A stretch of DNA of 62,953 nt, the filler included. It is 4 parts of 4 records of this genome, joined end to end, with 100 filler letters (N's around TTAATTAATTAA, not from the genome) between each part and the next. Parts side by side here need not be neighbours in the genome. Positions count along the whole stretch, not along the records: positions 49,462 to 62,953 come from SRR20825019_2646; 3 more parts are not named here. One strand, written 5' to 3'. Shown in pieces: positions 26,310-62,953 of this stretch. Both the position numbers and the translations under genes were made by a program. Below the pieces are notes generated by a model. The model was given only the letters and a program-made list of their open reading frames with translations, made no database searches and was not told the origin of the DNA. Positions within the stretch are counted from its first letter, which is position 1. Each line of letters opens with the position of its first letter.

Positions 26310-26564
26310 GTTAAACCTCTTTGCAAGTGGCGAGGGCGCACGCGGAAGTGCGCGTGTCCGGACGTTTTGCCGGACACTTTCAGCCTTGTTATTCGCAGGT
26401 CCGGGCCGGGAAAGCAATAGCGATATAAAGAAAGCTTTATATGGAAACGCTGTCCGGAGCAGCAAGTCCTGCCCCTGGGCAGGGCAAGCCTTTCCGTGTG
26501 ATGCCTTTTCTTGGCCACCGCTCTGTGCCAAGGAAGGACCGGTTACAGACAAGCGGATGACAAT

Positions 26565-27179: not shown

Positions 27180-27195
27180 GACCGGGTCGGGAGCC

Positions 27196-27840: not shown

Positions 27841-28304
27841 AGGCCATGAAGCGGGCCTGCCTGATCGCCCTGACCACCATGCTGCTGCTGGCATCGCCGG
27901 CGCTGGCGCAGAACCGCGTCGAAATCACCGCCGACCAGACGGTGATGAATGACAGCGCCCGCGAAGTAACCTTTACCGGCGATGTGATCGTGATCCATCC
28001 CAGTGTCACGGTCTGGGCGCCCAAAGTGATCGCCACCTATGGCGAGGGCGGCACCACCGATATCAAGACCTTCGTGGCCACGGGCGGCAATGTGCGGCTC
28101 AAGACCGATGAGCAGGACGCCACGGGCGAACATGCCGTCTATACACCAGGCGACCAATTGCTGCGCCTGACCGGTAATGTGGTGGTCAACAACGCCAGCG
28201 GCACGGTCAATGCCACCGAATTGGTGGTGAACCTGGCCACTAATGTGTCGACCTTTACCAGCGGCGGCGGCGGACGGGTGACCGGGGTCTTTACCTCGCA
28301 ATGA
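27837..28304 (+). CDS. lptA: LptA/OstA family LPS transport protein
   Basis: Signal peptide; VEITAD...FTGDVIV, ATGEHAVY, LTGNVVV, GRVTGVF. Confidence 0.9.
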   Translation: MKAMKRACLIALTTMLLLASPALAQNRVEITADQTVMNDSAREVTFTGDVIVIHPSVTVWAPKVIATYGEGGTTDIKTFVATGGNVRLKTDEQDATGEHAVYTPGDQLLRLTGNVVVNNASGTVNATELVVNLATNVSTFTSGGGGRVTGVFTSQ

Positions 28305-29186: not shown

Positions 29187-30713
29187 ATGGCGCTTTCGCC
29201 ACGGCTGGAGTTTCGTCAGTCTCAAAGCCTGACCCTGACGCCACAATTGATGCAGTCGATCCGGCTGCTGCAGCTCAGCCATCTCGAACTCAATGATTTC
29301 GTTGATGCCGAACTTTTGCGCAATCCGATCCTGGAGCGCGAAGAGGGCGGGGACGATGCCGAACCGGCCGAGGCGCCCGAAAAGCGCACCGAGATGAGTG
29401 CCTATGAGGATACGGTGGCCCAGGGCGACCGCATCAAGGATGCCGACCAGATCGCCGAGGGCTATGATACCGCGGTGGACAATGTGTTTCCTGATGCCGG
29501 ACAGGAACTTGGCCGGATTGTCGGACCGGACCGCAATGGCAGTTTCGAAGGCGGCGAGGCGCCCGACCTTGACCAGTATGTCGCCAGCCGGCCGCGCCTG
29601 TCCGATCATCTCGAAGCCCAGGCGCATATGGTGCTGCGCACCCCGGCAGACCGGCTGATTGCCCAGCATCTGATCGATGGAATCAATGAGGCCGGCTATC
29701 TGGTGGTCGAGCTCGATGCCATTGCCGATTTGCTGGGCGCCGAACTGGCCGATGTCGAAGCGGTGCTCGAAGCCCTGCAAACCTGTGATCCGGCGGGGAT
29801 CTTTGCCCGCGACGTTGCCGAATGCCTCTCGATCCAATTGCGCGAACGCGACCGGCTCGACCCGATCATGCAAAAGCTGATCGAAAACCTGCCGCTCCTA
29901 GCCGAACACAATATACCCGCCCTGCTCAAGGCGGTGGGCTGCGATCGCGAAGACCTTGCCGACATGCTGGCCGAGATCAGGCTGCTTGATCCCAGACCCG
30001 GGCTGGCCTTTGACAGCGGACCGGTCGAAACGGTTGTGCCCGATGTCTTCGTGCGCCCCGGGCCCGACGGGGGCTGGCAGATCGAGCTCAACAGCGAAGT
30101 GTTGCCACGCGTGCTGGTCAACCGGGTCTATTATGCGACAGTCTCGAAAAAGACCCGCGATGCGACCGAAAAGACGTTCCTGGCCGATTGCCTGAGCACA
30201 GCCAACTGGCTGACCAAGAGCCTGGACCAGCGCGCCCAGACCATCACCAAGGTGGCGGCGGAAATCGTGCGCCAGCAGGACGGGTTCCTGACCCATGGGG
30301 TGGCGCATCTCAAACCCATGACGCTCAAAATGGTGGCCGAAACCATCGACATGCATGAATCCACGGTCAGCCGCGTGACTTCGAACAAATATATGGCCAC
30401 GCCGCGGGGCCTGTATGAAATGAAGTATTTTTTCACCACTGCGATTGCCTCGGCGACCGGCGGGGTCGACCATTCGGCAGAAGCGGTGCGTCACCGGATC
30501 AGGCAGCTCATCGATGCCGAACCGGCCAGCGCCATCCTGTCGGACGATACGATTGCCGAAATGCTGCGCAAGGAACAGGGGATCGATGTGGCGCGCCGCA
30601 CGGTCGCCAAATATCGCGAGGGAATGAACATTCCCTCCTCGGTGATCCGGCGCCGGCAGAAGAAAGACTTCGATGCGGCGGCACGTCAATTCGCTCCAGT
30701 GGAACGAATTTAG
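29187..30713 (+). CDS. rpoN: RNA polymerase sigma-54 factor
   Basis: LTPQLMQSIRLLQL, HESTVSR and RpoN box ARRTVAKYRE. Confidence 0.98.
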   Translation: MALSPRLEFRQSQSLTLTPQLMQSIRLLQLSHLELNDFVDAELLRNPILEREEGGDDAEPAEAPEKRTEMSAYEDTVAQGDRIKDADQIAEGYDTAVDNVFPDAGQELGRIVGPDRNGSFEGGEAPDLDQYVASRPRLSDHLEAQAHMVLRTPADRLIAQHLIDGINEAGYLVVELDAIADLLGAELADVEAVLEALQTCDPAGIFARDVAECLSIQLRERDRLDPIMQKLIENLPLLAEHNIPALLKAVGCDREDLADMLAEIRLLDPRPGLAFDSGPVETVVPDVFVRPGPDGGWQIELNSEVLPRVLVNRVYYATVSKKTRDATEKTFLADCLSTANWLTKSLDQRAQTITKVAAEIVRQQDGFLTHGVAHLKPMTLKMVAETIDMHESTVSRVTSNKYMATPRGLYEMKYFFTTAIASATGGVDHSAEAVRHRIRQLIDAEPASAILSDDTIAEMLRKEQGIDVARRTVAKYREGMNIPSSVIRRRQKKDFDAAARQFAPVERI

Positions 30714-30994
30714 CCGAGAGGGCCATCAGGGCTGCGCCCGAATGGCCAGGCGCGCATCGTCTGACCGGCGCCAAATCATCCGAGCGGAACGGTAAGTGGC
30801 AGGTTCGTGGCTGTCACGCCTTTTGTTGCCAATTGTGCCTGTTGTTGCGCATGGACAGCGTGAAGGGCCGGGTCTAGCATCCTTGCTGTCGGCACCCCAT
30901 GTCTGGGTGGTCGGCAGACGCAGGTCCCGTGAAGCCGGGAGCGGCTTTTTCGGAACTCTCGTGTCGAGCCAAACGACCGAAAGGAACAAGAGCC

Positions 30995-31573
30995 ATGACC
31001 CTACGCGTTTCGGGAAAGAACATGGATGTTGGCGAGGCCCTCCGGGGCAAGGCGGAGGAGCACTTCACCTTAGTAGTCGGAAAATATTTCGACGGCGGCT
31101 ATGACGGCCATCTCACCCTCACACCGGACGGTATCGGTTTTCGCGCCGATTGCGTTGTGCACCTGGATTCGGGGGCAACGCTGCAGGCCAGCGCCCAGGC
31201 AGGCGACGCCACCAGCGCCTTTGAAGTCATGGCGCTCAATATCGAGAAGCGCCTGCGCCGCTATAACCGCAAGCTCAAGCAGCACCGCCGGGGCAATGGC
31301 GCCAACGGCATTGACGGATTGACCGCGCAATACACCGTGTTCGGCTCGACAGACGAATATGACGAGCTCGACGAAGATTTCGCACCGGCCGTGATCGCGG
31401 AAGCCACCAAGAATTTGCGCGAGATGAGCGTGGAGGAAGCGGTGATGGAGCTCGATTTCTCTGGACAACAGGTCGTGATGTTCCGCCATGCTGGACATGG
31501 CGGGCTGAATGTGGTTTACCGCCGCGCAGATGGCAATATTGGCTGGGTTGATCCGGCCCTGAGCGCAAATTGA
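30995..31573 (+). CDS. hpf: Ribosome hibernation promoting factor (long HPF/RaiA)
   Basis: MTLRVSGKNMDVGEALR, IEKRLRRY, NVVYRRADGNIGWVDP; follows rpoN. Confidence 0.93.
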   Translation: MTLRVSGKNMDVGEALRGKAEEHFTLVVGKYFDGGYDGHLTLTPDGIGFRADCVVHLDSGATLQASAQAGDATSAFEVMALNIEKRLRRYNRKLKQHRRGNGANGIDGLTAQYTVFGSTDEYDELDEDFAPAVIAEATKNLREMSVEEAVMELDFSGQQVVMFRHAGHGGLNVVYRRADGNIGWVDPALSAN

Positions 31574-36099: not shown

Positions 36100-36199
36100 N
36101 NNNNNNNNNNNNNNNNNNNNNNNNNNNNNNNNNNNNNNNNNNNTTAATTAATTAANNNNNNNNNNNNNNNNNNNNNNNNNNNNNNNNNNNNNNNNNNNN
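36100..36199. other. Artificial contig spacer
   Basis: N-TTAATTAATTAA-N. Confidence 0.99.
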
Positions 36200-44421: not shown

Positions 44422-47169
44422 CTAGTCCTCCGCAGCCACACCCTGGCTTTCGTCTGGAGCAGTCGTCTGGGCAACGGGGGCCACCGGCGCGGGGGCCGGA
44501 TCCGCATTTGCCATAGGAGGTCGTTGGAACGACAGAGCGCGAGTCATGATGAGGAGGTACCGTACGGCCTCCTGGAAAGCCGGCGCGGCGCTCTTTACAC
44601 GGGCGATTGCGTCCGCGGAGAAGACCGGGATCGGCAGGGTATCGAGGTTCGTGAGGGGCGCATCGGGGTTGAAGGGCGGCGGCTGAGGCTCCGGGGGCTT
44701 GATGAGCTTTCCATTGCTATCGTACTGTGGCCTCGGTGGCTCCGGCTCCGGCTGGCGTAGGGTCAGTACGGCGCGTGTGTGCACATTAAAGGAACCATGG
44801 AAACAAACAAATGCACGACGCGCTCATGTGACTGACTGAAACAGCGCCGTGGATAGACGCGCGCGACTCGTACCACACTACCCGCAGCTATGACAACAAC
44901 CCTCCCATCACTCTCCATCCACTCACCTCGGGTTCCTTCTCCTCGGGAGGCTCCAAGTCAACCTCCTTGAGGCACTGCTCAAGCCGGTAGTGGTACTCCA
45001 CCTTGAGGATGTCTGTCCACAGATCAACTTCTCCCTCAACGGGCCAGTACACATCCACGCCGTCCTGAGTCTGCATAGCTTCGATGCAGTTTGGCATGAA
45101 GGTCACTCCCTGCTTGTTCACGGCCAGATGCTGCCATCCGGGGGACTCAGGCTCGGGAGGAGGCTTGGAATGGTCAAGGTGTTCGTGGATCCTAACAACG
45201 CATTCGTCGGGTCCGCGGCGGTGGTTCCACCTGGAGGAACTGACGGCAAAGCCGGCAACGGCGCAGCTGACCTCAAACGTGGTTTTGTCGTCGATCTCGG
45301 TAGACTTGAGCTCAATGCCTTCGATCTTTTCTGCAGCTTCAGGCTTCGGCATAATTAGGTAGCCGGAGCGAACCAGCTCGTTCAGAAGATGGCCCGGGCG
45401 GAGCGGCGACGTAAGTCGCTGCAGCTCTGGCCTGCTGGGCTCCTTGAGCGTGCAGTATCCCTCACCGATCTAACGGGCCTCCGTAAGAGTCCAGAACAGA
45501 ATGCCGCCCGCCAATTCTCCAGACTCACCTCAATCTGAATCTCCTCGAACGAAGTCTTCAGGACGAATATTGCACTGTTGACCCCGTTGGGGTAGATCAT
45601 CCACGACTCGTACGGAATGTCGATGAAGCGCTCGGAAAGCAGCGCGAACGCTGCCATACGAGTGGTCTCGAACTTGATGGTCCTGTGGACAGAGTCAAAC
45701 TGCGGCTCGTGGACACCATCCGTGTTCCAGTTCTGGTCCTCCTCATCCCACCATCCGATCTAAAAAAAAGAAGATGGGGTTAGCGTCATCGGGAATTGAA
45801 CGCAAGGCGGGAGTTGGGCGAACCTTCGGCGGCATCGTGCGGAGAACGATGTGCTCTGCCAAGGGGAATGATATCCTGAACGACGGTCCACCCTGGTTTG
45901 CCATGGGGACGCGGGGCGCCGGAGCGTACTCTGCACCGGTGGGGGGGAGCGGGTACGGCAGGACCACAAGGTTGTTCTCGAGTCCATTCATCTGGCGCAT
46001 CGTCCACCCCTTCACCTCCACGGGGGGCGGGGGGATCGCCATTAAGTCCATCGAAAAGACGCCACCGACGCTGACGTACTCGCTCATGCTGCGATGCGAG
46101 AAGTGGTCGTATGTGAAATGCACCATCCGCACCGCGACATTGGCAAGCACCAGAGCCTGCGGGTGTGTCAGTCCGGCCAGAAGAGTTACCAACTACACCG
46201 GGGCCTACCTTGGGGAGATCGAACCAGGTGTTGAGATCCTCATATTCAATCTTCTTTACACGAAGGTTCTTGGCCATATTTACCCACATCCCAAACTTGA
46301 TATCAGGCATGTTCAGTGAGATCTGTAGCGTCTTGTTTTCCGTCTGAAGTTCCTCAGAGTACATCAACACCTTGGCAGTCGCAATGTCCAGTTTCTGATT
46401 GCTGATATCGCGAAGTTCATACCTGTAGCACCATAAGTAAGCCGACCCCCGCCACCACTCCGCCCGCAGCCACTCACTGAATCTCTTTCAAGACATTAAC
46501 CCAACCTTCATGTCTCCTCTCTTGTGCAAACGAAATGACGCCAGCCATGTCGTTGTTGATGTCCTCGGCGGCCTGGCAGTCATCCAGGACCGGGTCCACA
46601 TCGTCTCCCTTGTGTTCCCTCCACGCAGATATGTACGTGTTCAATTCCCCCTCCTTGTTCGCGTCAGGAAGCTCGGAGCACTCCAAGAACTTCACCCAGT
46701 CCTCCCGGTCGAGCTGCTTCTGCTCGGCCTCTCTTAGCTCCTTGTTCCTCACACTCAAGGCCATCAGTGCCTCCTTCTTCTCCTCTGCAAACCGATACAT
46801 CAGCCCGAGCACCAAACCAGCCGTACTCGTCGCGTTACCTTCCAGAGACTCATCAACAGCAACCTGTTTCTCTGCACGCTCAATCTTCTGCTTTTCTAGT
46901 TCCTCCTGCCACCGCACGCGCTGCCTCTCCAGCTCCTCCTGCTCCAAGCGCCTTCGCTCTGCCTGGAGTCCCCAAATGTCAACACCACACCCGTCCACTC
47001 CATCCCCCCATCAACGCCTACCTCCTCCTCGGCAAGACGCATGGCCTCCAGCTCGGCCGCTGTGGGCCCCTTTTTCTTCTTCTTTCCTCCCTTCTTCTTA
47101 GGGGGCTGCACCACAGCACGTTAGACACCATCTCCCCAGCCACCGCACAGACAAGCCTCCACATACCAT
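44422..47169 (-). CDS. DNAI7: Axonemal dynein intermediate chain IC97/CASC1 (DNAI7/CFAP94)-like, multi-exon; first coding exon is the ATG alone
   Basis: ATG, then intron 47106-47166, then PPKKKGGKKKKK. WVKFLECSELPD...ELNTYISAW, VGGVFSMDLMAIPPPP.EVKGW and DIPYESW resemble CASC1/IC97. Confidence 0.75.
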
Positions 47170-49361: not shown

Positions 49362-49461
49362 NNNNNNNNNNNNNNNNNNNNNNNNNNNNNNNNNNNNNNN
49401 NNNNNTTAATTAATTAANNNNNNNNNNNNNNNNNNNNNNNNNNNNNNNNNNNNNNNNNNNN
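49362..49461. other. Artificial contig spacer
   Basis: N-TTAATTAATTAA-N. Confidence 0.99.
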
Positions 49462-49492
49462 CCCCCACCCACCCACCCACCCACCCACCCCC
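49462..49492 (+). repeat. (CCCA)n microsatellite at contig start
   Basis: CCCCCACCCACCCACCCACCCACCCACCC directly visible. Confidence 0.9.
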
Positions 49493-50171
49493 CCGGCCCG
49501 AGTTGGCCAGTCAGCTTCGTAGTGCTGACTACTGATACGTATTAATACCACTGCCCTTTCCCTCAGACGAATACTAATTCCACACTACTTGGTGCTAACA
49601 TAGTATTGTGGATTTTCGTGTTATGATAAGAAGCTTTACAAGAAACCATAAGTCTATATCAAATATTCAGAAAACCTGACCGAAAAAAGGTAGCACAAAA
49701 AACAAGAAACAACACTACTAGATATATCAAGGACTAACTAAATGGCTGGCTCGAGACAAGTGACAAACACATCAGGGACTTCTCCACCTGAGGAGGCAAC
49801 CAGTGCGCTGCGACAGTGGCTGCAGTGGGCTCAACACCGAAGGCAAATGCGAGATGCATTTGATAACTTTCGGGTAACGAGCAACCGAGGCCCCGCATGA
49901 CAAACCCTGTAACATTGATACTACTAAACTAACTGACACCTTACATGCATTGTGACTACTGCCCGACTCCTCCATTTGGATTCGAACACTGAAACACCAT
50001 TGGTTTGGAAGCAGCTTCGCACTTTTACTCCCGAACCATCTCCCCATATTCTCATGTGCACATAATGGGAAGATGATTACCAAACAGTCTCCCCTCCACA
50101 AGTGAAACGTTTTGTACAGGGTCAGGCTTCGCGTTAGTAATACAAGAAAAAGATTTCAAGGAATGAATCAT

Positions 50172-51328
50172 TCACGCCCTCATGGACGACTTCAAGCTTT
50201 TCAGCTCGGCCGGATTTCCACCCAAAGTAAGGTTAGTCTTCCTCTGTTGGAAGCGCATCGAGAGAGCATCAGGGTCATCAGACCTGTTTCCTGCAACATT
50301 GTAGCCAGACATGGTCTTCACGGCGTCAGAGTGAGCGTCCTTCAGCTGCCTAACGTTCTCCATGATGTTCTCGACCAGTGGCGCTGCGCTCTCCACTGAT
50401 AGCACTGATATGAGCATTTGTCTATGAACTTGGTACAGTGCCACCTACCACTTCCCATATCACCAGCCATCTCCTGCAACTTGTTCACGTCGACCTGATT
50501 AAGAGCCTCAATTTCCGCGTGCATCGCTCCACGCATGTATTTTGCGGCGGACAGTTTCTTCCGGAGAACCTTGATTTCGTTGTTTAGTGCGTTCTCCTCC
50601 TCCCCATTAGCAACGTCTTCTCTCTGCACCCGACCATCAAAAACACGGCAGCGACAGTCCACAACAAACGAACCTTCTGGAACGGGGGGACAACAATGCC
50701 GTCTGGGACCTTGAAGATGTTCCTCTTCAAGTACAGCTCGAACTTATCGAAGTTGGCATCAATAGAATCCTTCAACTTCTCCATCAAGTCATTGAGGCAC
50801 TGTGCTAATACGTCAGCTCATGTACACAAAAGAGCTTGACCAGCAGACGCCCCTCCCGCCAACTAAGCTCGCGCGGCACAAGATAGCAACATAAAATTCA
50901 CATCTTCGAACTCTATACCGATACCACGTCCACTCGCACAAAATCTATCAGCACCATTCTTTCCAATACTTACGTGGTGAATCTTCCGTTCAAGCTCAGA
51001 ACGGAGCTCAGTCGAAGCATCGGAGGGAATGCACTCTTCGCGCAGCTTCAACTCGATAGTGTCGATGGCTGCACAACGACTTGTGAGCACGCAGCACGCA
51101 GTTCTACCGGCCGACGGCATGCATTCAGCATAGTGCCTTGGTACCACCACACATACCATCACAAGAATATTCGGTTGCCGCGTTGATTACGTCGTCGGCG
51201 AAGAGCGTTGGCTCGAGGCCCAGGACAGGCTCCGAGTAGGCACCGTCTTGACCAGAAGGAGCAGCCCCAGAAGCGGACGCCCCCTGGGTCTCGTCGACGT
51301 GTGTAGGTTGCTCACTATGGTTTTCCAT
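50172..51328 (-). CDS. MIS12: Kinetochore protein Mis12-like, multi-exon
   Basis: LGLEPTLFADDVINAA and IDANFDKFELYLKRNIFKVP are the Mis12 signature blocks, followed by coiled coil. Confidence 0.82.
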
Positions 51329-52132
51329 TCTAGTGTCTGCAGAGATCTGTCTGTGTGAGTGCATGTAAATATACGTATATATTCTCTTGGCATCAACAGG
51401 GGGCGGGAGGACCTATGCGGTAGCGCCCGTCTCATGAAGCATGCCTGCCGGCGCCGTCCGTTCTGTTGCAAAGGCTTGGCTTTTGCGATACTCTCTTGTG
51501 GCGAGCTCGACGCAGACCACAGTGTAAGGCAGAGGCCGACCGCTGGGCGTCCCACTGTGGCCCTTTTCCAACGGGCCTGACACAGCCCTGCTCTGGAGCC
51601 CGGGCCGGGCAGTCCGCCTAGCCGGCCTCGCAAGTGTGCGCGCGCCAAGCGTTCAAAGAGGATCGTTCGGAAACGGTCATATTCTAGGCCCCCCTCGACT
51701 TACACCATAATCTCAATCAATCTCGTCGGTGAGATTCAATCAAGAAACGTAACGACAAGACACGCCGAGCAAGATCATGTTGGGCGCTCTGCACCCGGCA
51801 GCGTGACGCCAACGGTGAGCCAGTCATTACGCGCCCTATCAGGGGCCGGTGATAATCACGACCCTCTCGGTGATCCCACGGCCACACTCACGGCGGCAGG
51901 AGGATGACGAATGGTCATAAGGGGTCATGGCCAACGGGAACACGGGGGCGGCTTTGGGCACTTGGTGCTCCACGGACAGCCCTGGTACCGGGACACAGCG
52001 GGTTTGATGCTGCTGCTGTAGAAACCAGTCCTTGGCGCGCTGTCATATATGTGACACCACCTCATGTTTTTTAATGAGGACATAATATAGACTAACCCGG
52101 GGGTACTCGAAGAGAAATCTGAACCTGTGAAG

Positions 52133-55100
52133 ATGCCGCAGCAGGTGCTTGGCTCTGGAGGGAAAAGCTGGTCGCGGTTCGGGGCATATCCTAACAGTGC
52201 CGCCGATGATGCTTACCTCTCAAAGTCAGCAAGCATGAGTGTCCGGACACAAGAGATCCTCACAGCTGGAAGTTATGCTGGCGACATGAGCAACTTCAAG
52301 TCACTGTCGTATTTAGATGGAAAGGATGGAGACGGCGGGAGGGCACAATATGATAAAACGGCAATGCACCATGGAGTCGCTGAAATCAAGTCGCGGATCT
52401 CCGCGGCGCTGCTGAGTGGAGCAGTGATTGTGGGTATTGAGCATTGTACTGGTTGTTCACGAGGCTCGCACGACCACAAAAACGAGGTAAAGATGCCCGC
52501 TCCCTAAACTGATCCCTCCCTTACCATCGTTTGTGCAGGACTATGAGGAAGCCTTCAACTCGCTTGGGTTCTACCTGGAAGACAATGTCACCCGTATAAG
52601 GGCGAAGATGGCTCAGTCAGGTCGCCAGGAACAGATTATACCGCCCGTTAAAGTGGTGGGGAACTGCGATGGAGCGCCTCGACTCAATGCATTTGAAGTT
52701 TATTACTGGTTCAACAACCGAAAGATCCTCATTTTTAGCAAGTTGAAGTCTGGGAAGTTACCAAAGAACGAGGTCATCTTGGCGGCACTGAAGTTTGCCT
52801 TGCGTCGAGATGGCACTGGGAGCAAGGCAGAGATGCCCCCAAAAGATTCATTTGCGTCTCCGATTCCCCTGTGGCCACATGCTCACCTTTTTCCTTACAA
52901 TTGCTTATATGACAAAGGAAGTACCGTAGAGGTGCCCAAGCATGAAGCGAATGTGGACCGAGGGAAGCAGGTTGACAAAGGAGGGCAAAAGAAAGAGAAG
53001 CGCCTTCACCCTGGAAGCTCCATCCCCAAAACTCATTTGATGGAAAGTGACAAAATAGCAAGCCCAGGTTCATTCTTCCCTGATATTTCGAAACGAAGTT
53101 CTTCAAGTAGCAAGAGCAGAAAGACGGCCACCTCGCCGACGGTAACATCATCGGGGTCTCCAGTGAGGTTGGGTTCGTCAGGGTCGGACGGAACGAACTA
53201 TGAGGAGGCAGTGGTGTCCCCACCCCCATACAGATCTCACAAGGATCAGAGCGGTGGGCACGAGGAGTCTCCCTCCATCCGGAAAAACCTGAGGCGGAGC
53301 TCCTACTTGGGGGGTGTACTTGCCGCTGTGAAAACGGATGGACGTGAGTTACAAGACGCGAGACTGCTCAAGAGTGACATTTATACTTCGGAAGAGGTTG
53401 AGTTGGTGAGCCGGACAACATCGTCGGAAACCCTGAAGCTGCGCAAAGTTATCCATTCCGAGGATGACAATGGTAAGAGCTTGCATTCGAGGCATAGCGA
53501 ACGGCCGTGGAGGACGACAGACATGCGCGGAAAGGGAAGCCGATCTCCGAGATCGACCGCCAGCACTCCAAGTGCAGCCGCATCTCGCGGCCATATCACT
53601 CCGCCGACACCATCCACAGAAATCGATGCCAGGTCAGGCAGCGGAGGAGAGCAGGGGAAGACACAGACATTAGTTGTACACGAGGCCTTGGCGAGGAGGA
53701 TTGAGGAAGCGACAGCTCAGTATACCAGTAGCAGTGATAGCGAAAGCTCTGGTAATAACGTGGGGACGAGAAAGAGAAAGAAGAATGAGCGCGGCGCGAG
53801 GAGCGCTGTGTCTGAGCCCGGGTCACGGTCACAAAGTGTAGGGCGGGCGTCTTCTAGGAGGTCGCGGAAAAAGAGTCAGAGCAGTACTGAGAAAGAGCTA
53901 AGGGGAATGAAGGCCTCTGCTGAGTCCTCACGGAACTCGACGTCGCGCAAGAAGCAACCGGTGAAATCTCCGCGGGAGCCAGTGTATGTGATGGAAGGCT
54001 CATCCAAGCCGGCTCCGAGTGATAGAAACAACAAGCGGACAAACAGATGGCTGGTGGACTTGGTCGAGAAGAATTTCAGATCCAGTGAGGAAGCCAGGAC
54101 TAACCGCTACGCCAAGGAGGTGAACGCTGTCAAGCAGCACATGGAGGATAAATCCATTAACCTCTCGCATCTTCCCCACAAACCTGTGAATCAGGCTTCC
54201 ATCGGAACGATGCTGCGGGAGTCCTTGTTAAAGGCTCAGGAACAGAAGGAGGCCGACGAAAAAGGCAAGGAGAGGGAACTCGAGGCTAGGAGAGCCGCGG
54301 AGAAGGCGGTTAAAGCTAAGAGTGAACAACGCAAGCTCGCATCATCCACTCGCGCCGCAATTTCTAACCTTGCACCAGCGTCGGTGAGCGTCCCTGTTAC
54401 GCAGCGTGAATCAGAAAACACTGAAGAAAGGAGCCGACGGCGGGGAGGAGGGTACGGTGGCGGGGTAAAGAGCAACCCTGTCACATCAAGACTGCCCACA
54501 TCCGCCCAGTCCGACCGGAGAGAAGGATCTGTAGAAGAGAGTGAGCCAATTCAGAATTCCATCGAGAGCTCTTCAAGCGGCTCTGAGACTGAAAAGGATG
54601 ACACTGAAGAAGTGGAGTGCAATACGGGGGGTGATGGTTTGGCTGAAACGGAAGGAGGAAAGGAAAGCTTGACGAAGGACAGGCCTTCTGGAGAACTTGA
54701 GGAAAACCCTGAAGATGACACTGGGGATGGTCAGGCGGAAGATGCGAAGGAGATCGTTGAGGCTGACGTAGAGGGAAGAAGCGGCACTGCCCCGACGAGG
54801 ACAGAGGCGGAGCCACGGCCAAACAATGAGCCTGGTGCAAGTGTACGCAACAGCTTCACGTCGCCTCGCAAGAGTGCCAGGGGGAAGAAACTATCAGCCA
54901 GGGGAGCACCAACCACACCCAAGACCCCGCGCGTAGTTGTGGACAATCTTGCAATAGGTCCTTCACCACGGGGGTCCCGCGAGAATAGAGAAACCATCCT
55001 CCCTAACGGGCATGTGGAAAGGCAGCCAAGCCCTGAGCCCGTGCCGGAACCGGAGCCTGTTGTTGACTGGAACCGTAGTGATACTGCCATGTGCATCCGT

Positions 55101-57113
55101 CTTGGTTGCCGCAAGTGGGTCGTCATGGAGAATGATGTTATTACATCCACGCATATGTGTCAGCGCGGGAACGATTCCAAGTCTGACTCTGGCGAGAAGG
55201 ATGCCGATGTGTCCGATACCGACAGTGAGCAGGAAGAAGATTCCACACCGATTGAAGTTGCGCCCGAGGATGGAGAGGGCGTAAAGATCCAGGCACCAGA
55301 CCAAGCTCCGAATGCGTCGCCTAGCCCTCCCTCACGCTTGAGCATGGCACCGAGCCCGGCACCAACCTTAGCGATACCCGTTAGAACGCCGCGGGACGTT
55401 TGCCGATATCACCCGGGTATCTTCGACTTTGCTCATCCCAACGGATGGTGGAAGGACCACTGGACATGCTGCGGGAAGGAATGGACCGCACCAGGTTGTA
55501 CCAAGGGGGAGCACAAGGTGAAAACTGCAGAATCTGTGAGCCAGCTGTGCAAGAATTGCGGGCGTTGGTTCATGCAATGCGAGAACACAGAGGATTCCTG
55601 TGGTGGGCATGGAAGGCACACTGGCTACGCAGATTGGCCTCACCCTAACGGAAAGAACCGGTTTGTGAAAAACGGCGTGCAAGGAAGATCGCGGGACCCC
55701 AAGAAAGCCAAGCCTATGGACCCTGAACTGGTTTCCTTCCTGCAGTGGTGCCTTCCTAAGATGGGCTTGCGGTGGGGGGCCTTTGAGCGCCAGAACCAAT
55801 TCAACGACCGTCCCCAATTCATCATGTGGAAGAAGCGCTTGAGCACTAGGTGTGAGCAGCTGAAGCTTAAAGGTCCACAGGGATATAGACAGTACCTGGA
55901 GAAGAATTTCCCAAAATGTAACCTCAAGACAGCCGATGAGAACAATGAATGGCGCGTCCTGGAGAAAATGTTCCGATTTGATATCAGTCACTTCTATAGA
56001 GACAGAGAGGTATACGATGATATCGCACAGAATCATTTTAAGAGGATGTGTGAACTCGCAAACGCCACTAGCGGAGAATCAGACGAAACTCCAGAAGGGG
56101 AATCGAAGGCAGTTCGGGTGTGGTGTGCTGGTTGTGCTTCAGGCGAGGAGCCCTATACGCTGAAGGTGTTGTGGAATGACATTGTGCAGAAGAATCCATT
56201 GGAGATTATGGCAACCGATGTCAATGCGTCATCCATCGCACGAGCGACCAAGGGCAGATACAGGTTCCTCCCTCCCAACCTCCCTCAGTCATTTATTGAC
56301 AAGACATTCATCTGCGGTGGACGTGGGCGGGCATATTCGATTCGAAACGAGTTGAGGGAAGGAATTGACTTCCAGGTTCAAGATATCCGTCATCACACCC
56401 CGGATGGACCTCTCCATATGATCTTCTCCCGAAGGTGCCTCTTCCTTTACTTTGATATTGTTGTCCAAAAGATTGTGCTCCAAAAAATGCTTGAGAGGTT
56501 GGTAGTTGGAGGCCTTTTGATAGTAGGCTACCGGGAGAAGCTACCATGCCAAGTCAAGGGGCTGGTAGAAGTACGGCCTTGCCTATGGATGAAGACCGAG
56601 GAGTGTGTGCCACCGTATGTGAGCCTTACAGCAGAGGAGATGGAGAAAGCACTCGAAGGAGAAGATGAGGAGGAGGAGGAAGTGGCGGAGAACAATGAAT
56701 CCATGAAATCCGAAGATCCCGGCATAGAAAACGAATCCTTCAGCAGGTCCGCCAGCACCTGCGAAATGGTATCCAATGAACCTGAATGGTTTGAACTACA
56801 AAAAAAACCAGAGGTTGAACAGGAGGAAGTTGAACTGAAGGACCCTAAGGAAGAGCAGGGAAGGCAGTCAGTAAGGAGCAACACAAGTTCAAGTGAGAAG
56901 AGCGTGGGCGTTAATGACGAAAATGCCGGAAGTCGTGGCTCTTCATACCCTGCCAGCGACATACAAGAAAGTGAGAGTGAATCTGAGGAGTCGGATATTG
57001 AGAATGAGGTGTGGGGCCGCGCCAGCATTAGAGAACGCAGGCAAGACTTCTCCAAGACCAAGTATAAGATCAAGGAGTCACTCGACTGGTTCGCCAACAA
57101 CGGTTTGTTCTAA
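52133..57113 (+). CDS. Rdx/SelW-like domain + long disordered region + Cys/His zinc motifs + CheR-type SAM methyltransferase; join(52133..52486,52539..57113)
   Basis: 52-nt phase-0 intron at 52487-52538. Rdx: IEHCTGC...PRLNAFEV...FSKLKSGKLP. Zinc motif: CRYHPG...WTCCG...GCTKGEH. CheR: ISHFYRD, VWCAGCASGEEPYTL, ATDVN, LFLYFD, GGLLIVGYRE. Confidence 0.85.
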
Positions 57114-57282
57114 TTATAGAAACATGGGGGTTGGGGGGGGGGTAAGGCCTCCGCGTTCCTCTTTGTTGGATGAAGAACGAATAAAGAGTACATCACCTAT
57201 TTACAAAAGCACACGAATGATATCACATCCACTTGGTCGCTTTGAAGAATGTCAGTTTACTACTCGCAGCTCACTGCCGCTA

Positions 57283-59979
57283 TTATCCCTGAATGGGAAT
57301 AACCTTGCGAATATGTGACTTTTTGGACAGTTGTCCTACTGGGAATGACGTTGACGCTACGAGGCGGCGATTTGTCCTCTGCGTGCGCCTGGAGTCGTGC
57401 CCAGCGGGCATTCGCGAGAAGATAGCCTCCACCTGTTCGCTTGAGGCTGTCTGAATCTCCTTCATGACCACCCAACGCACCCCTTCTGTGCAGGGCCCCG
57501 GGGGCGTGCACAGCGACCCGTCATACATGTAGTAGTTGGGATCATCCGGGAGCCCCTTGACCGGATTGATCGATGTAGCACCGTCCAATAGCTGCTGAAC
57601 CCACTCACTCTTCTCTCCCACCCTGAACAATGTCGACATCATAACTTTTCCAGATGAGTTCTCATGTTCAAAAATAACCTCCAGCGCCGAATCTTCTCCG
57701 TTCACTCGGTGCAGCCCCGGAGAGTGAACCTGTACAGATTTCAATTCAAAAAGGGAGTCCTGCACCTGCAGCGTACTACCAGGAGGAATATTCGAGTAGA
57801 CCAAATGTTCATCCTCCTCCAAAGTAAGCTTGGGGACAATATTATAGAAGGTGACCAAAGCGCGCACACTTGGACTATGCAAAACAGGCATATTGTCAAG
57901 GTTGGCGGTTGTGTCTTCCTCGTCCTGATACGGCTTCCCATTGCTACCCAGAGCCCCCACCGCCTCGGTGTCCTTATCACCAGACTTCTGGGCCTCGTCC
58001 TTCACCTCCTTTCCATACTTTTTCATGAGCGCCTCATAATCGGTGATATCTATAGGTGTCTGGTGCTTTCCCATGGTGCACATAGGGTCGGTGTAAGGAA
58101 CCGCCTTGGATGGTCGCGCATCGTACGTCCAAACGTTCTTGGTGATTTGGCTGTCGCCATATGCATGAGTGAAAACTTTCCTGCGCTTCAATGGTTTCAA
58201 CGGGCGGGCATTATGGAAGAAGAGAGCATCCGTAATATGAGTGAACTGACGAAGGGACATGCTGGCAATGTCTTGATTCTTCAACACGATCCACGTGACA
58301 TGCTCCTGGCATGGAGGTGTGGTCATGGATCCTTCGTACTTGTAGAAGTTCGTTGTCGCCCTATGCTCCCGCGATATCGAGAGCAGCTTGATGAGTGGAA
58401 GTGAAACCGACGAGGTGACCTTAAGCTCAACAGGGTCGGTGGTATTCGTAATAGGGGGAATGGCCTCCACAAGCGGCGCAAACACGGGGTTGTCCGTCTC
58501 CGTGAGATGGATAGGCAGGGCGATATTGAGCTTCCTCCCCCGGGAGGCCTTGTGCTGGATCTGAATCTCCATGTCTGCACGATGCCCATTGACAATATGC
58601 TCGCCGGGCCAGTGGAATGTGACCCGACTTGCGTGGTACTTCACCTTGTTGTACCTTACATAATTGTTCCCCCCGTTATCGACCTTCACGCTTAGTCGGA
58701 AATTCTTCAAATTCAGTTCTCCTCCCATATCACCACGATACTCCACCTCCAGCAGAGACATGTACATATCCCTAATGACAGATGTGGAGGCTATTTCGAC
58801 AGGGGACTGGTTCCCTCCGTCGTTGCATTTCGCGTAAGCGCTATCCAACATTCCCCAGCGTCCTGACCCGCAATCCGGATCGTCATAGCACCAGTCCTTC
58901 CTCCGGCACTCGCGACCCCGCCAGCCATTGATGCAGTTGCACTTGCACTCGTTCTCGTCCAGAATGCCGTGGTTCTGGCACTTCAACGAGCACCCCACCT
59001 CGGCACAGGTTGGACCCTTAAACCCTGGTTCGCATAGACACTTGCATTTGGCTGACTTAGAAGGCTTTCCGTGCAAGCACTTAATCTGGCACTCGTGACA
59101 AGACTCGCCCCCCCATGGGGCCTTGCACGTGCAGCGACAGGGCTCCTTGTCGTTGTAGTTGTGAGTCATTGTCCCTCCGTGTTGGCAGGAGTGGCTGCAT
59201 CGCTTCCCCGAAGTATAGATATCCGGATCCTCCAGAATAGTTTTGCGCTCCCCAATCTCTGTTTTATGCTGTTTCCCCCATTGCTCATGAGACATCCCAG
59301 CCGCGTCATTTCTTTTCTTGTTCTCCATCTGAACTTTGCACCGCGAGTTCTCATCGTCGGTATTGCTATAGCAATACTTCGGTGCGTTCTTCCCCCCAAG
59401 AACCCTGCACCGAGAGTATATTTTCGGGCAGCCATTGTACCCTCCACACAAGAAAAGAGTGCCTGGCCCACAGTCCTGCCTGTCCGGGCAGTCAGTCTTG
59501 CCCTCGCCAAGCGATTCGACAGACTCATGCAAGTCAAAACCCAGCGGTGACTTCATTTTCAGGCTCGACTTCCGTAGTCTGTGCCGAAGTCTGTGCTCTC
59601 CCGATGACTTCTGCTTCTTCGACCCGGCATCCTTACTAGTGACCTCGCTCCGTGAGCGTTTCCTTCTGTGTACCTCACTCAAGGCTCTCTTCTTATCGCC
59701 CACAATTGCACTTGCTTCACCGTCAGCCCCATCGTCATGACGTGACGTAGCATGCTTTTGGCTGCTCTTGGATATGGAATCAAGATCACTGCTGGAGGAG
59801 CCAGTTTTCTCCAGGTTTTCCTTCAGCTTGCACCTTTTCATGGACTTTGGGCAGCCATCCTCACCACCACAAGCAAAACCCGTACCCTTCCCACAGCGTT
59901 TATGAGAATCTGCGTGAGACACGGCCACCAACACTACCAAACATACTAGCAGGAGAGCTATACTCTTCCGGCTTACCAT
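57283..59979 (-). CDS. Secreted protein with Cys modules, EGF repeats and two alpha-carbonic anhydrase-related domains
   Basis: Signal peptide MVSRKSIALLLVCLVVLVAVSHA. Three EGF-like repeats. NQSPVEI, YKYEGSMTTPPCQEHVTWIV, NARPLKPL and YMYDGSLCTPPGPCTEGVRWVV. Confidence 0.88.
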   Translation of the reverse strand: MVSRKSIALLLVCLVVLVAVSHADSHKRCGKGTGFACGGEDGCPKSMKRCKLKENLEKTGSSSSDLDSISKSSQKHATSRHDDGADGEASAIVGDKKRALSEVHRRKRSRSEVTSKDAGSKKQKSSGEHRLRHRLRKSSLKMKSPLGFDLHESVESLGEGKTDCPDRQDCGPGTLFLCGGYNGCPKIYSRCRVLGGKNAPKYCYSNTDDENSRCKVQMENKKRNDAAGMSHEQWGKQHKTEIGERKTILEDPDIYTSGKRCSHSCQHGGTMTHNYNDKEPCRCTCKAPWGGESCHECQIKCLHGKPSKSAKCKCLCEPGFKGPTCAEVGCSLKCQNHGILDENECKCNCINGWRGRECRRKDWCYDDPDCGSGRWGMLDSAYAKCNDGGNQSPVEIASTSVIRDMYMSLLEVEYRGDMGGELNLKNFRLSVKVDNGGNNYVRYNKVKYHASRVTFHWPGEHIVNGHRADMEIQIQHKASRGRKLNIALPIHLTETDNPVFAPLVEAIPPITNTTDPVELKVTSSVSLPLIKLLSISREHRATTNFYKYEGSMTTPPCQEHVTWIVLKNQDIASMSLRQFTHITDALFFHNARPLKPLKRRKVFTHAYGDSQITKNVWTYDARPSKAVPYTDPMCTMGKHQTPIDITDYEALMKKYGKEVKDEAQKSGDKDTEAVGALGSNGKPYQDEEDTTANLDNMPVLHSPSVRALVTFYNIVPKLTLEEDEHLVYSNIPPGSTLQVQDSLFELKSVQVHSPGLHRVNGEDSALEVIFEHENSSGKVMMSTLFRVGEKSEWVQQLLDGATSINPVKGLPDDPNYYMYDGSLCTPPGPCTEGVRWVVMKEIQTASSEQVEAIFSRMPAGHDSRRTQRTNRRLVASTSFPVGQLSKKSHIRKVIPIQG

Positions 59980-60755
59980 ATCTAGTATATTGCGGTGTCA
60001 GTTTAGCATCTCATGAACGCACGGTCCTCGCATTTACACCAGCGGATAGTAAAATACTTGTACCAACACCCGTCAAGGCACAGCCTCCAAGAATTCATTG
60101 CTATTCGGCCAGCCGGCCGCCAACCGGCCGGCGACCAACCTGTTGACCAACTTGCTGCCGGCCACTTTTGCTGTGAGCGCTTGGATCTGTCAGACCGTAC
60201 CCGCCCGCCTCAGTTTGCCCGCCGTCATGAAACGCACGGGGGCTTCGGGCAGGGAGTTGGGGGTGGAGGGCGGGGGGCGACTGACCGGCCCGGGGCCACT
60301 GCGCCCGAACGCTGGCCAGTCTGCAATCCGGCAGCCGGAGAGAAGAGGTTATCAGAAATCTTAGAAAATCTACTCATTGGGCCACCCTCGATTTTTAATT
60401 TTAGTAGAGGATAGCCTACATAATCGGCTCAGATGTTAGGGCTCGTAAATTCAAATTTTGGTTCATCGGCCCGGCGCTCCCAGGCGCCGCGCGGGCCGGC
60501 CGGCTGGCTGGGACCGCGGGCGTCATCCACTGCACTCAGCCCGGATTGTTCAAGCGAGGCGCCTTGTCCGCGGGGCGCCCTGCTGCTGCCAGGCACCGGA
60601 CCCGCCTCACGGCAGGCTGCACCACGCGGCAGGTCGTCCTCGCAGGAGGGTGGTTGCAGCACTACACGACCTGTTAGTCCCCACGCGTGGCACTAGAGTA
60701 TTCTGTCTGCTCAAGATATACGTATCATTTTTACAACAGTGCCGTAGTTGTTAGT

Positions 60756-62953
60756 ATGGTTAACATGACTCAAGAGCTTCCCACTCCGGAGTTCCCCGAT
60801 GTGGAAGAAATGGCCGCAATGGCCCAAAAAACCATCATGGATGCTAACGGTGGTGAGATGCCGCCTCTTGCTAGTGAGGAGGACCAAGCAGCTATGAAGA
60901 AGAGGGCGGATGCCTACATTAACAATGCCCTGAACCAGTTTGACCACAAAGTTCATGAAGCTACCGGAGATGAGTTCGAACTCTTCATGGAGAAAGTTGA
61001 CCTTGCAAACAAAGCAATTAACGACATGAAGGAAGGAGACTTAGAACCGGAGAAGTTTGACGAAATGTATGGCTCCCAGCTGAAACAGGTTGAGAAGAAG
61101 GAGGAGGAGTACAAGGTCAAAAAGAAGGAAGAAAAGGAGCAGATCAAACTTACGGAAGAGGAGATCCGCCAAAAGAACGAAGAGCGGAGGAGGGAGTCTG
61201 GTGTCAAGGTTTGCCTTCTGTGCAACCTAGAGTATACCCCAGAGTCCTTGCAGTGCACCAAGTGCGATGGTCACCTGCGCACCCAGAAGGAGATCGATGA
61301 GAAAAGGAAGGGGAAGGTTGACGACATTGTTGGCGATATCAAGAGGCGGCGTGAGCGCATGGAGCGCTGGGAGCGCTGGAAGAAGTCGCATCCCAGCAAG
61401 TTTGGCCGCCGCGCCAAGGCAACCGACTACCAAAAGTGGGACAGGTGGGAGCCGAGCGATTCTGAGGAGGAACGTCTGCTTCGGGATATCCCCCCCGCGG
61501 ATAGGCCCGAGTTTGCTGCGATGGAAAAGGACGCCGAGGAGCGGCACAAGCGCCGCAAGGAGAAGCAAGCCGTTGCCCTAAAGCACAAGGAGAAGGGCAA
61601 TGGACTGTTCCGGCAGGGAGAGTTCCAGAAGGCTCTTGAGGAGTATGATGAGGCGATTGACCTCGTCAGGGACAACCCGGTTCTGTACACTAACCGCGCC
61701 CAGGCTCTGATTAAGCTAGAGAAGTTCGAGAAGGCTCTTGCTGACTGTGACAAGTGCTTGGACCTATGCGAGTTCTTGGAGTACCCCGACTCTCACGCCT
61801 CCGTTGTAAAGGCGCTGCACCACCGCGCCAACATCAAGAAGTTGCAGGGTGATTGGCGTGATGCCCTGGAAGACTTTGAGAGGGCTTTGGCAGGCGCCCC
61901 TAACAACAAGGACTTGGTCAAGATGGTCAATGCCGCCAAGCTCGAAGTGGATAAACTGGACGAGGAGTACCGTGTAGCAAAGATGGCGCGGGATGCACGG
62001 AAGAAGGAGAGGGCCGAGAAGGAAAAGGAGGAAAAGGAAAAGGAGGCTGCCACAGAGAAGGTTGAGGAGAAGGAGGAGGCCGAAGCACAGAAGGATGGTA
62101 AGGTGACGGTCATGAAGCATGCCTGGGAAGACAAGAAGGATGCATCCAAGAGCGACTTTGACACCATTGACGAACTGTTGAAGGGCCTGGTTGGTGTTAA
62201 GGAGGCTGATATGGGAGAGGAGCACTCCAAGGCCATCTGGGAGTTGGGCATTCTGATGGATACTGATGATAACCGCATTTATGTGAGGCAGAAGAAGGCA
62301 GTCCCTGTGCTGGCTAAATTCATGAAGAAGTGTGCCCAGGTGACCTTGCCGGTGTTGGCGGTGGTCTGCTTCGATGCACATAACAGGAGGGAGTTGTGCC
62401 GCGTGGATGGTGCTCTTGAGAGCCTCCTTGGCCTTATGAGTGACGAAAAGGATGTGACTTGCAGCCATCTTGCGATGACCCTTGGAAAGGTCCTCACGGA
62501 ATCTGATGACTCCCGCGCCGATCTCATCAAGGCCGGCGTGTACCCCATTGTTCTCAAGCAACTTCAGAAGGACAACACTCTCATCCGCATCGCGGCTGTC
62601 GCTGCCTTGGGCAATATGGCACTTGATGCCAAGGTTAAGCGCCTTGCAAAGGAGAGCGGAGTAGAGGTGATCCGGCCCATCCTGGAGCTAATGAAGGATA
62701 AGAGCATTCGTGCGAAGGAGGTTGCTGCGTCGGCTCTTGGGAACCTCTCTGGCGAGCCATCGCTTCGTCGCATTGTGTGTGAGAACGATGGTGTGCTGAC
62801 TCTTCTCGTTGCACTGAGGTCCGCCATCAAGGACACGAAGGAGATCGGTAGCCGCGACCTTTTGGTCAACGCCATGGCGGCCCTGGTTAACTTTGCCCTT
62901 GATGAATCCGTCCCTGAGAAGGTCCATGCATGCAAGGGGGCGCTGGATGATTT
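60756..62953 (+). CDS. TTC12: TTC12-like TPR + ARM repeat protein (runs off the window end)
   Basis: Open frame from ATG 60756, absent from the ORF track because it has no stop in the window. FAAMEKDAEERHKRRKEK...KEKGNGLF...VLYTNRAQALIKLEKFEKALADCD, then ARM repeats (AASALGNLS). Confidence 0.75.
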   Translation, partial: MVNMTQELPTPEFPDVEEMAAMAQKTIMDANGGEMPPLASEEDQAAMKKRADAYINNALNQFDHKVHEATGDEFELFMEKVDLANKAINDMKEGDLEPEKFDEMYGSQLKQVEKKEEEYKVKKKEEKEQIKLTEEEIRQKNEERRRESGVKVCLLCNLEYTPESLQCTKCDGHLRTQKEIDEKRKGKVDDIVGDIKRRRERMERWERWKKSHPSKFGRRAKATDYQKWDRWEPSDSEEERLLRDIPPADRPEFAAMEKDAEERHKRRKEKQAVALKHKEKGNGLFRQGEFQKALEEYDEAIDLVRDNPVLYTNRAQALIKLEKFEKALADCDKCLDLCEFLEYPDSHASVVKALHHRANIKKLQGDWRDALEDFERALAGAPNNKDLVKMVNAAKLEVDKLDEEYRVAKMARDARKKERAEKEKEEKEKEAATEKVEEKEEAEAQKDGKVTVMKHAWEDKKDASKSDFDTIDELLKGLVGVKEADMGEEHSKAIWELGILMDTDDNRIYVRQKKAVPVLAKFMKKCAQVTLPVLAVVCFDAHNRRELCRVDGALESLLGLMSDEKDVTCSHLAMTLGKVLTESDDSRADLIKAGVYPIVLKQLQKDNTLIRIAAVAALGNMALDAKVKRLAKESGVEVIRPILELMKDKSIRAKEVAASALGNLSGEPSLRRIVCENDGVLTLLVALRSAIKDTKEIGSRDLLVNAMAALVNFALDESVPEKVHACKGALDD

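Follow-up and report, generated by a model that had tools for sequence, protein, structure and literature searches.

A CheR-family methyltransferase domain in a spliced eukaryotic-type gene and its bacterial orphan relatives

The gene and its CheR module

The window, meaning the whole stretch of DNA analysed here, is 62,953 bases long and consists of four contigs placed end to end; it is not a single molecule. On contig 4 (positions 49462–62953), which contains everything reported below for this locus, lies a plus-strand gene (52133–57113) predicted to encode a protein of 1642 aa that includes a methyltransferase module of the CheR family. In textbooks CheR stands for the adaptation of bacterial chemoreceptors, and to our knowledge its true homologues have hardly been discussed in eukaryotes. 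The gene has two exons and its spliced product contains no internal stop. Exon 1 (52133–52486, 118 codons) runs from the ATG at 52133 to the donor site, and is separated from exon 2 by a 52 nt, phase 0 intron (52487–52538) with GT..AG borders and preceded by a pyrimidine-rich tract. Exon 2 (52539–57113) is an uninterrupted open reading frame (ORF) of 1524 codons plus the stop codon (57111–57113). The original prediction for this locus had placed a spliced gene at exactly these coordinates, between a Mis12 gene and an EGF protein, and the limits, the intron and both neighbours were recovered as described.

The predicted protein begins with a putative CxxC thioredoxin-fold (Rdx/SelW-like) domain (52418–52799, spliced residues ~96–205), which has the intron inside it. 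This is followed by a low-complexity linker of ~760 residues (52800–55091), rich in Ser/Thr, Lys/Arg and Asp/Glu when composition is taken in 50-residue blocks, in which no Pfam family matches. Three groups of Cys and His residues come next: a C-x4-C (55092–55109) that by motif position forms the first half of a CHORD-like module, a CHORD/BTK-like zinc motif C-x2-H-x18-CC-x8-C-x4-H (55401–55514), and C-x2-C-x13-C-x5-H (55548–55619), a possible extra zinc site. The CheR-family module consists of a helical N-terminal domain (55710–56099) and the S-adenosylmethionine (SAM)-binding methyltransferase domain (56100–56627, Pfam PF01739). By composition, the remaining ~160 residues (56628–57110) form an acidic C-terminal tail.

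The Pfam profile PF01739 matches the module at 98 bits, against a cut-off of 27, over residues 1204–1360 of the ORF (56100–56570). In a sequence search of the PDB with the CheR piece, chemotaxis CheR chains were the only significant matches (best 5ftw_A, E 5.4e-15). An AlphaFold model was made for a 451-residue piece (55338–56690) from an alignment of 101 rows, and its predicted local distance difference test (pLDDT) values are mostly above 90 across residues ~125–430, the CheR part. When this part was compared with known structures using Foldseek, ranks 1–10 were all CheR (E 6e-18 to 4e-15), and the next methyltransferase followed at 1.6e-6. The alignment to 1bc5_A extends over 304 columns (269-residue target, target template modelling (TM) score 0.76) and so covers the helical N-domain as well. 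The model has the two-domain CheR fold, with a helical N-domain and a Rossmann methyltransferase domain carrying an inserted beta subdomain. A search with the Pfam CheR_N profile (PF03705), which had been suggested as a check, gave no match in the window at E ≤ 1, and the same profile gave the two nearest bacterial relatives only 19–20 bits, under its cut-off of 27. The NCBIfam equivalog for chemotaxis CheR (PRK10611, EC 2.1.1.80) scored 51.6 bits, far from its cut-off of 435. Judged by sequence and modelled fold, this is a genuine and complete CheR-family module, lying in a continuous frame within a spliced eukaryotic gene as had been proposed.

The CheR motifs quoted in the original prediction are all present. 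The window keeps 22 of 22 invariant columns in alignment A1 and, of the 58 columns conserved to 85% or more across 100 relatives (alignment A3), it retains 48. These include T-D and Y-F-D, the G-C-x-x-G-E-E loop, and the Arg of both F-Y-R-D and C-R-N; the catalytic and SAM-binding roles of these motifs are those described for the Salmonella structures. The domain could nevertheless be a degenerate pseudo-enzyme, a CheR fold retained as a binding or scaffold module after methylation was lost. In line with this, the 10 departures among the 58 highly conserved columns include the C-R-N motif, which reads S-R-R so that a 98%-conserved Cys is replaced by Ser, and the first Arg of S-R-F-Y-R-D (92% conserved), which is replaced by His next to F-Y-R; the branch leading to the window in the tree described below is also long (1.34). 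On the other hand, members of the subfamily vary between N, Y and H at the third position of C-R-N, nothing is altered in the glycine-rich SAM loop, in T-D, at the invariant Arg of C-R-N or in Y-F-D, and the model is confident across the entire domain. Since the conserved SAM-binding and catalytic motifs are kept, we regard loss of activity as unlikely, and the domain as probably an active SAM-dependent O-methyltransferase.

The zinc module, the CxxC domain and their homologues

One other protein shares the arrangement of zinc module and CheR seen in the window. It is a protein of 456 aa (P0018) encoded on a 2.4 kb contig from a public sequencing run, belonging to a different data set than the window. 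The two align colinearly for 411 residues (E 4e-55, 29% identity), starting at the C-x2-H motif and stopping where CheR ends, and they are sisters in the tree. In both, the same CHORD-like module precedes CheR, with the ligands in the order C-x4-C, spacer, C-x2-H-x18-CC-x8-C-x4-H and then C-x2-C-x13-C-x5-H. All the Cys and His ligands of the window are conserved in P0018, the columns of the possible extra zinc site are invariant between the two, and the Cys and His residues of the zinc motif recur in the ciliate-code contigs described below. P0018 lacks the acidic insert, the spacer between C-x4-C and C-x2-H being 16 residues long compared with ~97 acidic residues in the window, and it also lacks the acidic tail. 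In the alignment this tail is absent from the bacterial relatives too, which speaks against it as a conserved substrate of the enzyme. The original prediction had named the Glu-rich tracts of the protein as candidate targets; these tracts are conserved neither in P0018 nor in the bacterial proteins.

The best Pfam match of the zinc module is to the BTK motif (PF00779; 20.2 bits, E 5.5e-4), under the 24-bit cut-off of that family. A profile built from the two sequences found as its best PDB match 2yrt, the CHORD domain of CHORD-containing protein 1 (E 0.0076), while the Pfam CHORD profile (PF04968) gave no match for the window and 15.8 bits (E 0.022), compared with a cut-off of 24.6, for the ciliate homologue. 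Over the zinc module the AlphaFold model has a pLDDT below 50. Its zinc ligands come in the same order as in the CHORD domains of Rar1, CHORDC1/Chp-1 and melusin and in the BTK motif, but the spacing C-x2-H-x18-CC-x8-C-x4-H differs from the CHORD consensus, which has x14 and x15–16 at the corresponding places. On these sequence comparisons, 'CHORD/BTK-like' seems a fair description, one that falls short of establishing membership of either family.

Assignment of the N-terminal domain is similarly qualified. A C-T-G-C motif occurs at spliced residues 105–108, in exon 1 and after a hydrophobic stretch, and ciliate homologues have a C-x-x-C at the same place. Pfam and TIGR scoring was carried out on the exon-2 half only, where Rdx (PF10262) scored 14.4 bits (E 0.045, cut-off 22.6) and TIGR02174 13.7 bits (cut-off 34.2), each through the C-terminal half of the profile. 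The three best named clusters in an Atlas search were eukaryotic Rdx families (score 0.87), which we take as a lead only. The exon-2 half of the domain gave just a chance-level Kelch match in the PDB, and a hidden Markov model (HMM) of 24 myxobacterial selenoprotein-type Rdx domains scored the spliced protein at 3.7 bits, within the range of shuffled sequences. In the phylum of Archangium, 19 of 81 sampled genomes carry a gene of the Rdx family (loci L081–L104); most have an in-frame TGA at the CxxU position, and are likely to encode selenoproteins.

Homologues of the N-terminal part came from a scan of metagenome contigs with the zinc-module alignment. It found two loci, L105 and L106, both of 31% GC, in which the matching frames (L105:1430–4447 and L106:2–2515) contain in-frame TAA and TAG codons and are fully open under the ciliate code (TAA/TAG = Gln). 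Both specify large proteins in which a CxxC domain is followed by three CHORD-like modules, compared with the one module of the window, and they share with it the CHORD-like motif H-P-G ... W-T-C-C ... G-C-T-K-G. Apart from a weak CHORD match (E 0.022), the family goes unrecognized by Pfam. A tblastn search detected no CheR within 4 kb downstream of the L105 frame, and L106 ends too early to tell. The ciliate CxxC domain aligns by tblastn with spliced residues 96–173, that is, across the exon junction, and this supports splicing of the 52 nt intron. An HMM of the two ciliate domains scored the spliced N-terminus at 16.4 bits, compared with 2.1 for exon 1 alone and 6.8 for exon 2 alone, and none of 2000 shuffled sequences reached 16.4 (best shuffle 12.2). 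A model of the ciliate domain shows the order b1-a1-b2-b3-b4-a2 at a mean pLDDT of only 55.6; SelW has this same thioredoxin-like topology. Foldseek returned nothing at E ≤ 0.001 for this low-confidence model, and its top rows were thioredoxin-like proteins of small size, mouse SelW ranking third (E 0.013). The N-terminal domain of the window is thus probably a CxxC thioredoxin-fold domain that is Rdx-like. The Rdx/SelW-like and Btk/CHORD-like modules of the original prediction are therefore borne out as CxxC and Cys/His motifs, while their family scores stay below the cut-offs. Because the combination of CxxC domain and CHORD-like modules exists apart from CheR, these two parts most likely represent an older eukaryotic scaffold, an existing protein to which CheR was added.

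Relatives of the CheR domain, its origin and the integrity of the locus

A HMMER scan of 1.84 billion representative proteins returned 18,812 matches to the CheR domain at E ≤ 0.001, none of them above 44% identity, so that the lineage of the organism is absent from that collection. After P0018, the best matches are proteins of ~270–350 aa that show 36–44% identity, with both subdomains aligned end to end. These relatives, such as HEU5260465.1 (Gemmatimonadales) and proteins of Archangium (L002) and Hyalangium (L012), are typically orphan CheR-family proteins of ~275 aa, and the end-to-end alignment includes their N-terminal signature. The subfamily starts with F-L-Q-W-x-L-P-x-L-x-x-R-W-x-G-F-R-K-V-R, and the helical domain of the window opens with its first part, F-L-Q-W-x-L-P. 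A profile of the subfamily matches the CheR chains of the PDB at E 1.2e-44 to 3e-35 but aligns only from position ~27–31 on.

A word-indexed search gave 489 matches; all 120 of those listed carry PF01739 and none is from a eukaryote source. The protein collection includes EukProt and MMETSP entries. Among prokaryote genomes represented once per species, 578 relatives were confirmed, and the best 80 of these 578 are bacterial or archaeal, coming from Myxococcota (Archangium, Hyalangium, Labilithrix), several proteobacterial classes, Gemmatimonadota, Nitrospirota, Bacteroidota and others. Proteins of 847–2695 aa, considered as possible long, fused relatives, proved to be only distant CheB/CheR kinases (E at least 3.5e-11). 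The Atlas search with the CheR piece returned bacterial CheR clusters only, all with scores below 0.9.

Three CheB/CheR fusion proteins and four CheW proteins served as tblastn queries against the flanks of the best 80 loci. A CheB esterase part was adjacent or fused at none of the 50 nearest loci (L001–L050), compared with 19 of the 30 distant ones (L051–L080), and CheW occurred near the CheR gene at 1 of the 80, a distant locus. Five genomes carrying a near-clade gene were inspected; one is without any CheW-domain match, and in Archangium the nearest CheW lies 153 kb away. From these neighbourhoods and the sequence relationships, the CheR domain of the window is not a chemotaxis CheR, but belongs with a separate bacterial clade of orphan CheR-family proteins. 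The original proposal of a horizontally acquired, domesticated CheR holds in essence, with amendments as to the source family and the order in which the parts of the protein came together.

The recurrent partner of the orphan genes is a different enzyme, protein-L-isoaspartate O-methyltransferase (PCMT). The two are fused as CheR-PCMT in L001 (5995–7479) and as PCMT-CheR in three proteins (P0040, P0254 and P0289); PCMT is the next gene on the same strand in L019 (5908–7610), and lies within 3.5 kb in L004 and L024. A gene for Hsp90 (htpG) is placed divergently upstream in both L001 and L019, the bacterial rows nearest to the window by path length in the tree. Since the Hsp90 genes of these two loci are 65% identical and the loci are related, the adjacency of htpG counts as about one event. 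A neighbour survey using an ORF caller took in 38 of the 80 loci; at 7 of them no ORF was called where the match lies and at 8 the call fell on the wrong strand, leaving 84 ORFs at 23 loci; no family occurred in more than two of these ORFs, and none of the 25 families listed, out of 77, was a chemotaxis family. Since the PCMT gene of L019 escaped the caller, the tblastn search over all 80 loci is the more reliable. In the literature searched, we found no description of the pairing of CheR with PCMT and no paper describing the function of the ~275 aa orphan proteins.

A tree was inferred with IQ-TREE (quick mode) from 96 rows, comprising 78 of the 80 loci (two with short matches were left out), 16 unnamed proteins, and the window together with P0018. 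The last two are sisters (Shimodaira-Hasegawa-like approximate likelihood ratio test, SH-aLRT, 80) and fall inside a clade starred at 95, in which the other 65 rows are either bacterial loci or metagenome proteins without a name; outgroups further away come from bacteria and archaea. The original prediction had allowed that the domain might group with an ordinary eukaryotic methyltransferase family; its nearest relatives are all bacterial or metagenomic, and the tree places it in or beside the clade of bacterial orphan CheRs. No donor phylum is resolved by the tree. An approximately unbiased (AU) test fails to reject a clade of the 66 near bacterial rows without the eukaryote-type pair (p 0.63, with a higher likelihood), so nesting of the pair inside bacteria is not demonstrated. 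We read the phylogeny as placing the pair either sister to the bacterial orphan clade or inside it.

The result of the AU test leaves room for vertical inheritance, in which the CheR-family enzymes of this clade would be ancient in eukaryotes and lost nearly everywhere, with no transfer needed. The two sequences with the shared arrangement are divergent (29% identity), and the fusion must be old. Against this, the zinc module was found in only 1 of the best 150 representatives even though EukProt and MMETSP are part of the collection; there was no eukaryote-source match among the matches listed; the more distant outgroups are likewise bacterial and archaeal; and a search of the ciliate contig bearing the scaffold revealed no CheR. 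The direction of transfer is inferred from this distribution, hundreds of bacterial lineages compared with two sequences that have the zinc module. We therefore consider an ancient eukaryotic origin quite improbable, and acquisition from bacteria followed by domestication the best reading of the sequence relationships. Of the original proposal of horizontal acquisition, the bacterial and metagenomic identity of the nearest relatives and a third-position GC like that of the rest of the gene speak in favour, while placement within bacteria does not follow from the tree.

A simpler explanation would be an artefact, with a CheR gene from a co-assembled bacterium joined to a eukaryotic contig by the assembler. 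The contigs of the window are separated by three spacers (N44-TTAATTAATTAA-N44 at 25748–25847, 36100–36199 and 49362–49461), and adjacency across these joins is meaningless. Contigs 1, 3 and 4 look eukaryotic, and contig 2 (25848–36099) is bacterial. It has the usual lptB-rpoN-hpf order, with an ABC ATPase (28301–29056), a complete sigma-54 gene (rpoN, 29187–30713) and a ribosome hibernation factor (30899–31573), as well as part of a SAM synthetase gene (N-domain, 25800–27296, minus strand). The source assembly is thus a mixture of a protist with at least one bacterium, and chimerism needed serious consideration; the close relatives of the domain are all bacterial, and poly-C/G-like tracts typical of short-read assemblies occur at contig ends.

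Several features of the gene argue that the fusion is nonetheless real. The linker, zinc module, CheR and the acidic tail of ~160 codons are read in one ORF of 1540 codons that is unbroken on either side of the domain. The CheR part matches the rest of the gene in third-position GC (0.57 for each), with values of 0.62–0.67 for the two neighbouring genes of contig 4 and 0.73 for the bacterial rpoN. The domain carries acidic and low-complexity inserts of which the bacterial proteins have none, and its best identity to any bacterial protein is only ~44%. The strongest point, as far as sequence comparison goes, is the colinearity with P0018, which has the same order of zinc module and CheR. When sequencing runs were searched, parts of the gene were matched only by those coded X1 and X2, which belong to one study and one sample. 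Their contigs match 54580–56800; one of them spans 55327–55879 without a single difference, so bridging the zinc module and the CheR N-domain, and others chain into the tail. The junction between zinc finger and CheR, which the original prediction proposed to verify with reads, is therefore crossed by a separate contig, while the intron is not: the X1 and X2 contigs cover only 54580–57600, with none over the intron or the 5' half of the gene, and neither run is listed as RNA. Taken together, these observations make an assembly chimera very unlikely.

In X1 and X2 the contig depth is far higher over the carbonic-anhydrase gene described next than over the CheR gene, a difference that cannot be interpreted from contigs. 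The neighbouring genes of contig 4 are eukaryotic in type. Upstream is part of a Mis12-family gene (50342–50817, minus strand), in which the Pfam match (PF05859) is split over two frames (E 3.8e-9 and 0.0081), and a 50 nt GT..AG intron fits between them at 50624–50673. Together with the 52 nt intron of the CheR gene, this indicates that short canonical introns characterise contig 4. Downstream is an ORF of 904 codons (57283–59997, minus strand) that encodes EGF-like and two alpha-carbonic-anhydrase domains (Carb_anhydrase 151.9 bits, EGF_TEN 26.8 bits). Beyond it lies a gene with TPR and armadillo (ARM) repeats (60678–62951, plus strand) that is TTC12-like; its best match is a Bigelowiella protein, which at 35% identity over 30% of the query gives no taxonomic placement. 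Contig 3 contains a Casc1-like piece (N-terminal match at 45786–46487, minus strand), and this and the TTC12-like gene suggest, by homology, that the organism builds cilia or flagella.

The genes of contig 1 include exportin-like, IQ/TPR, PP2C, MOT1, and EGF plus alpha-carbonic-anhydrase genes. The last of these is a large ORF (16108–21207, minus strand) paralogous to that of contig 4 (57283–59997), the two encoding EGF-like repeats with two or three alpha-carbonic-anhydrase domains of eukaryotic type. Third-position GC reaches 0.94 in the exportin-like ORF (253–3669), compared with 0.57–0.67 for the genes of contig 4, and the GC content of contig 1 falls from ~70% to 55% along its length; such a contrast could mean that isochores are strong, or that the assembly contains more than one eukaryote. 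A GT2 glycosyltransferase is also present on contig 2. Poly-C and (CCCA)n-like tracts at contig ends (25715–25747, 49340–49361 and 49462–49495) may be sequencing or assembly artefacts, or telomere-like repeats.

Interpretation and comparison with known systems

The explanation we consider likely is that this is a real nuclear gene of a poorly sampled protist, in which a horizontally acquired, orphan-type CheR was fused to an older scaffold, and that the domain is probably active on a substrate other than a chemoreceptor. The protein would have four parts: a CxxC (Rdx-like) domain, a disordered linker, a CHORD/BTK-like zinc module, and a CheR methyltransferase with an acidic tail. The methyltransferase would descend from the widespread bacterial clade of stand-alone, ~275 aa orphan enzymes found outside chemotaxis operons, and would have been placed downstream of a CxxC-plus-CHORD-like scaffold that already existed. 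It would most likely act as a protein carboxyl O-methyltransferase, with the zinc and CxxC modules perhaps serving in recruitment or regulation. Membership in the orphan clade points to a substrate that is not a chemoreceptor, and the 'new substrate' of the original prediction was probably already true of the bacterial donor.

Several observations weigh against this explanation. The assembly is mixed, with one of the four contigs bacterial, and X1 and X2 may be the source sample of the window itself, in which case their contigs show internal consistency and are not independent support. The Rdx and CHORD assignments are under the curated cut-offs; the Cys to Ser and Arg to His replacements mean that activity is not certain; and no substrate is known even for the bacterial orphan proteins. 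The AU test fails to reject a position of the eukaryote-type pair outside the near bacterial rows, and with branches of 1.34 for the window and 1.8 for P0018 their pairing could partly be long-branch attraction.

That the protein methylates receptors like the methyl-accepting chemotaxis proteins in a eukaryotic chemotaxis-like pathway is the least credible alternative, for although its fold and motifs are those of CheR and a CheB/CheR-type histidine kinase has been reported from Physarum (PMC6324907), it belongs to an orphan clade with CheB at 0 of 50 near loci compared with 19 of 30 distant ones and no near CheW, its score is far under the chemotaxis equivalog cut-off, and Pfam CheR_N is unmatched.

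A more speculative extension, which we put forward as doubtful, is that the orphan clade and its protist descendant constitute an unrecognised protein-carboxyl-methylation system that serves proteostasis, not signalling. The lead comes from the fusions with PCMT, from htpG as a neighbour at the two loci nearest to the window in the tree, and from the attachment of the protist enzyme to a CxxC domain and a CHORD-like module; CHORD proteins are known to bind Hsp90. The eukaryotic protein would then form methyl esters at acidic or damaged residues, either of Hsp90 or of client proteins bound to chaperones. If this were true, a bona fide CheR-homologous protein carboxyl methyltransferase would be at work in a eukaryote.

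In scope this is a single gene in one protist. It is a well-supported case of a bacterial methyltransferase domain that appears to have been welded to an older eukaryotic zinc/redox scaffold, and it points to a large, unstudied clade of bacterial orphan CheR proteins whose links with PCMT suggest a role outside chemotaxis. The locus also offers a tractable test of CheR-type glutamate methyl-esterification in a eukaryote. In the literature searched, neither a CheR-family gene of alveolates nor the CxxC/CHORD/CheR architecture was found described. Some eukaryotic proteins are entered in domain databases as having a CheR-type domain.

The only relevant items that the literature search returned are two eukaryotic systems. 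PpolyHK19 of Physarum is a histidine kinase homologous to prokaryotic CheB/CheR kinases (PMC6324907); it represents a CheR-type domain in a protist, but of the CheB/CheR kinase type and not of the orphan clade. Armt1 is reported to O-methylate glutamates of PCNA and has been called 'CheR-like' by function (PMC4741683). It is of a different fold family (DUF89) and not homologous to CheR.

The bacterial orphan proteins resemble the CheR part of the window most closely, but they are stand-alone or fused to PCMT, and lack the zinc module, the CxxC domain and the acidic inserts. With the chemotaxis CheR proteins of known structure (1af7/1bc5 of Salmonella, 5ftw of Bacillus subtilis and 5xly, CheR1 of Pseudomonas), the window shares the two-domain fold (Foldseek E 6e-18, TM-score 0.76) and the F-Y-R, G-C-x-x-G-E-E, T-D, x-R-x and Y-F-D motifs. 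Identity to these proteins is ~21–24%, the first ~28 positions of the module are subfamily-specific and do not align with them, and the domain is predicted to be part of a eukaryotic protein of 1642 aa.

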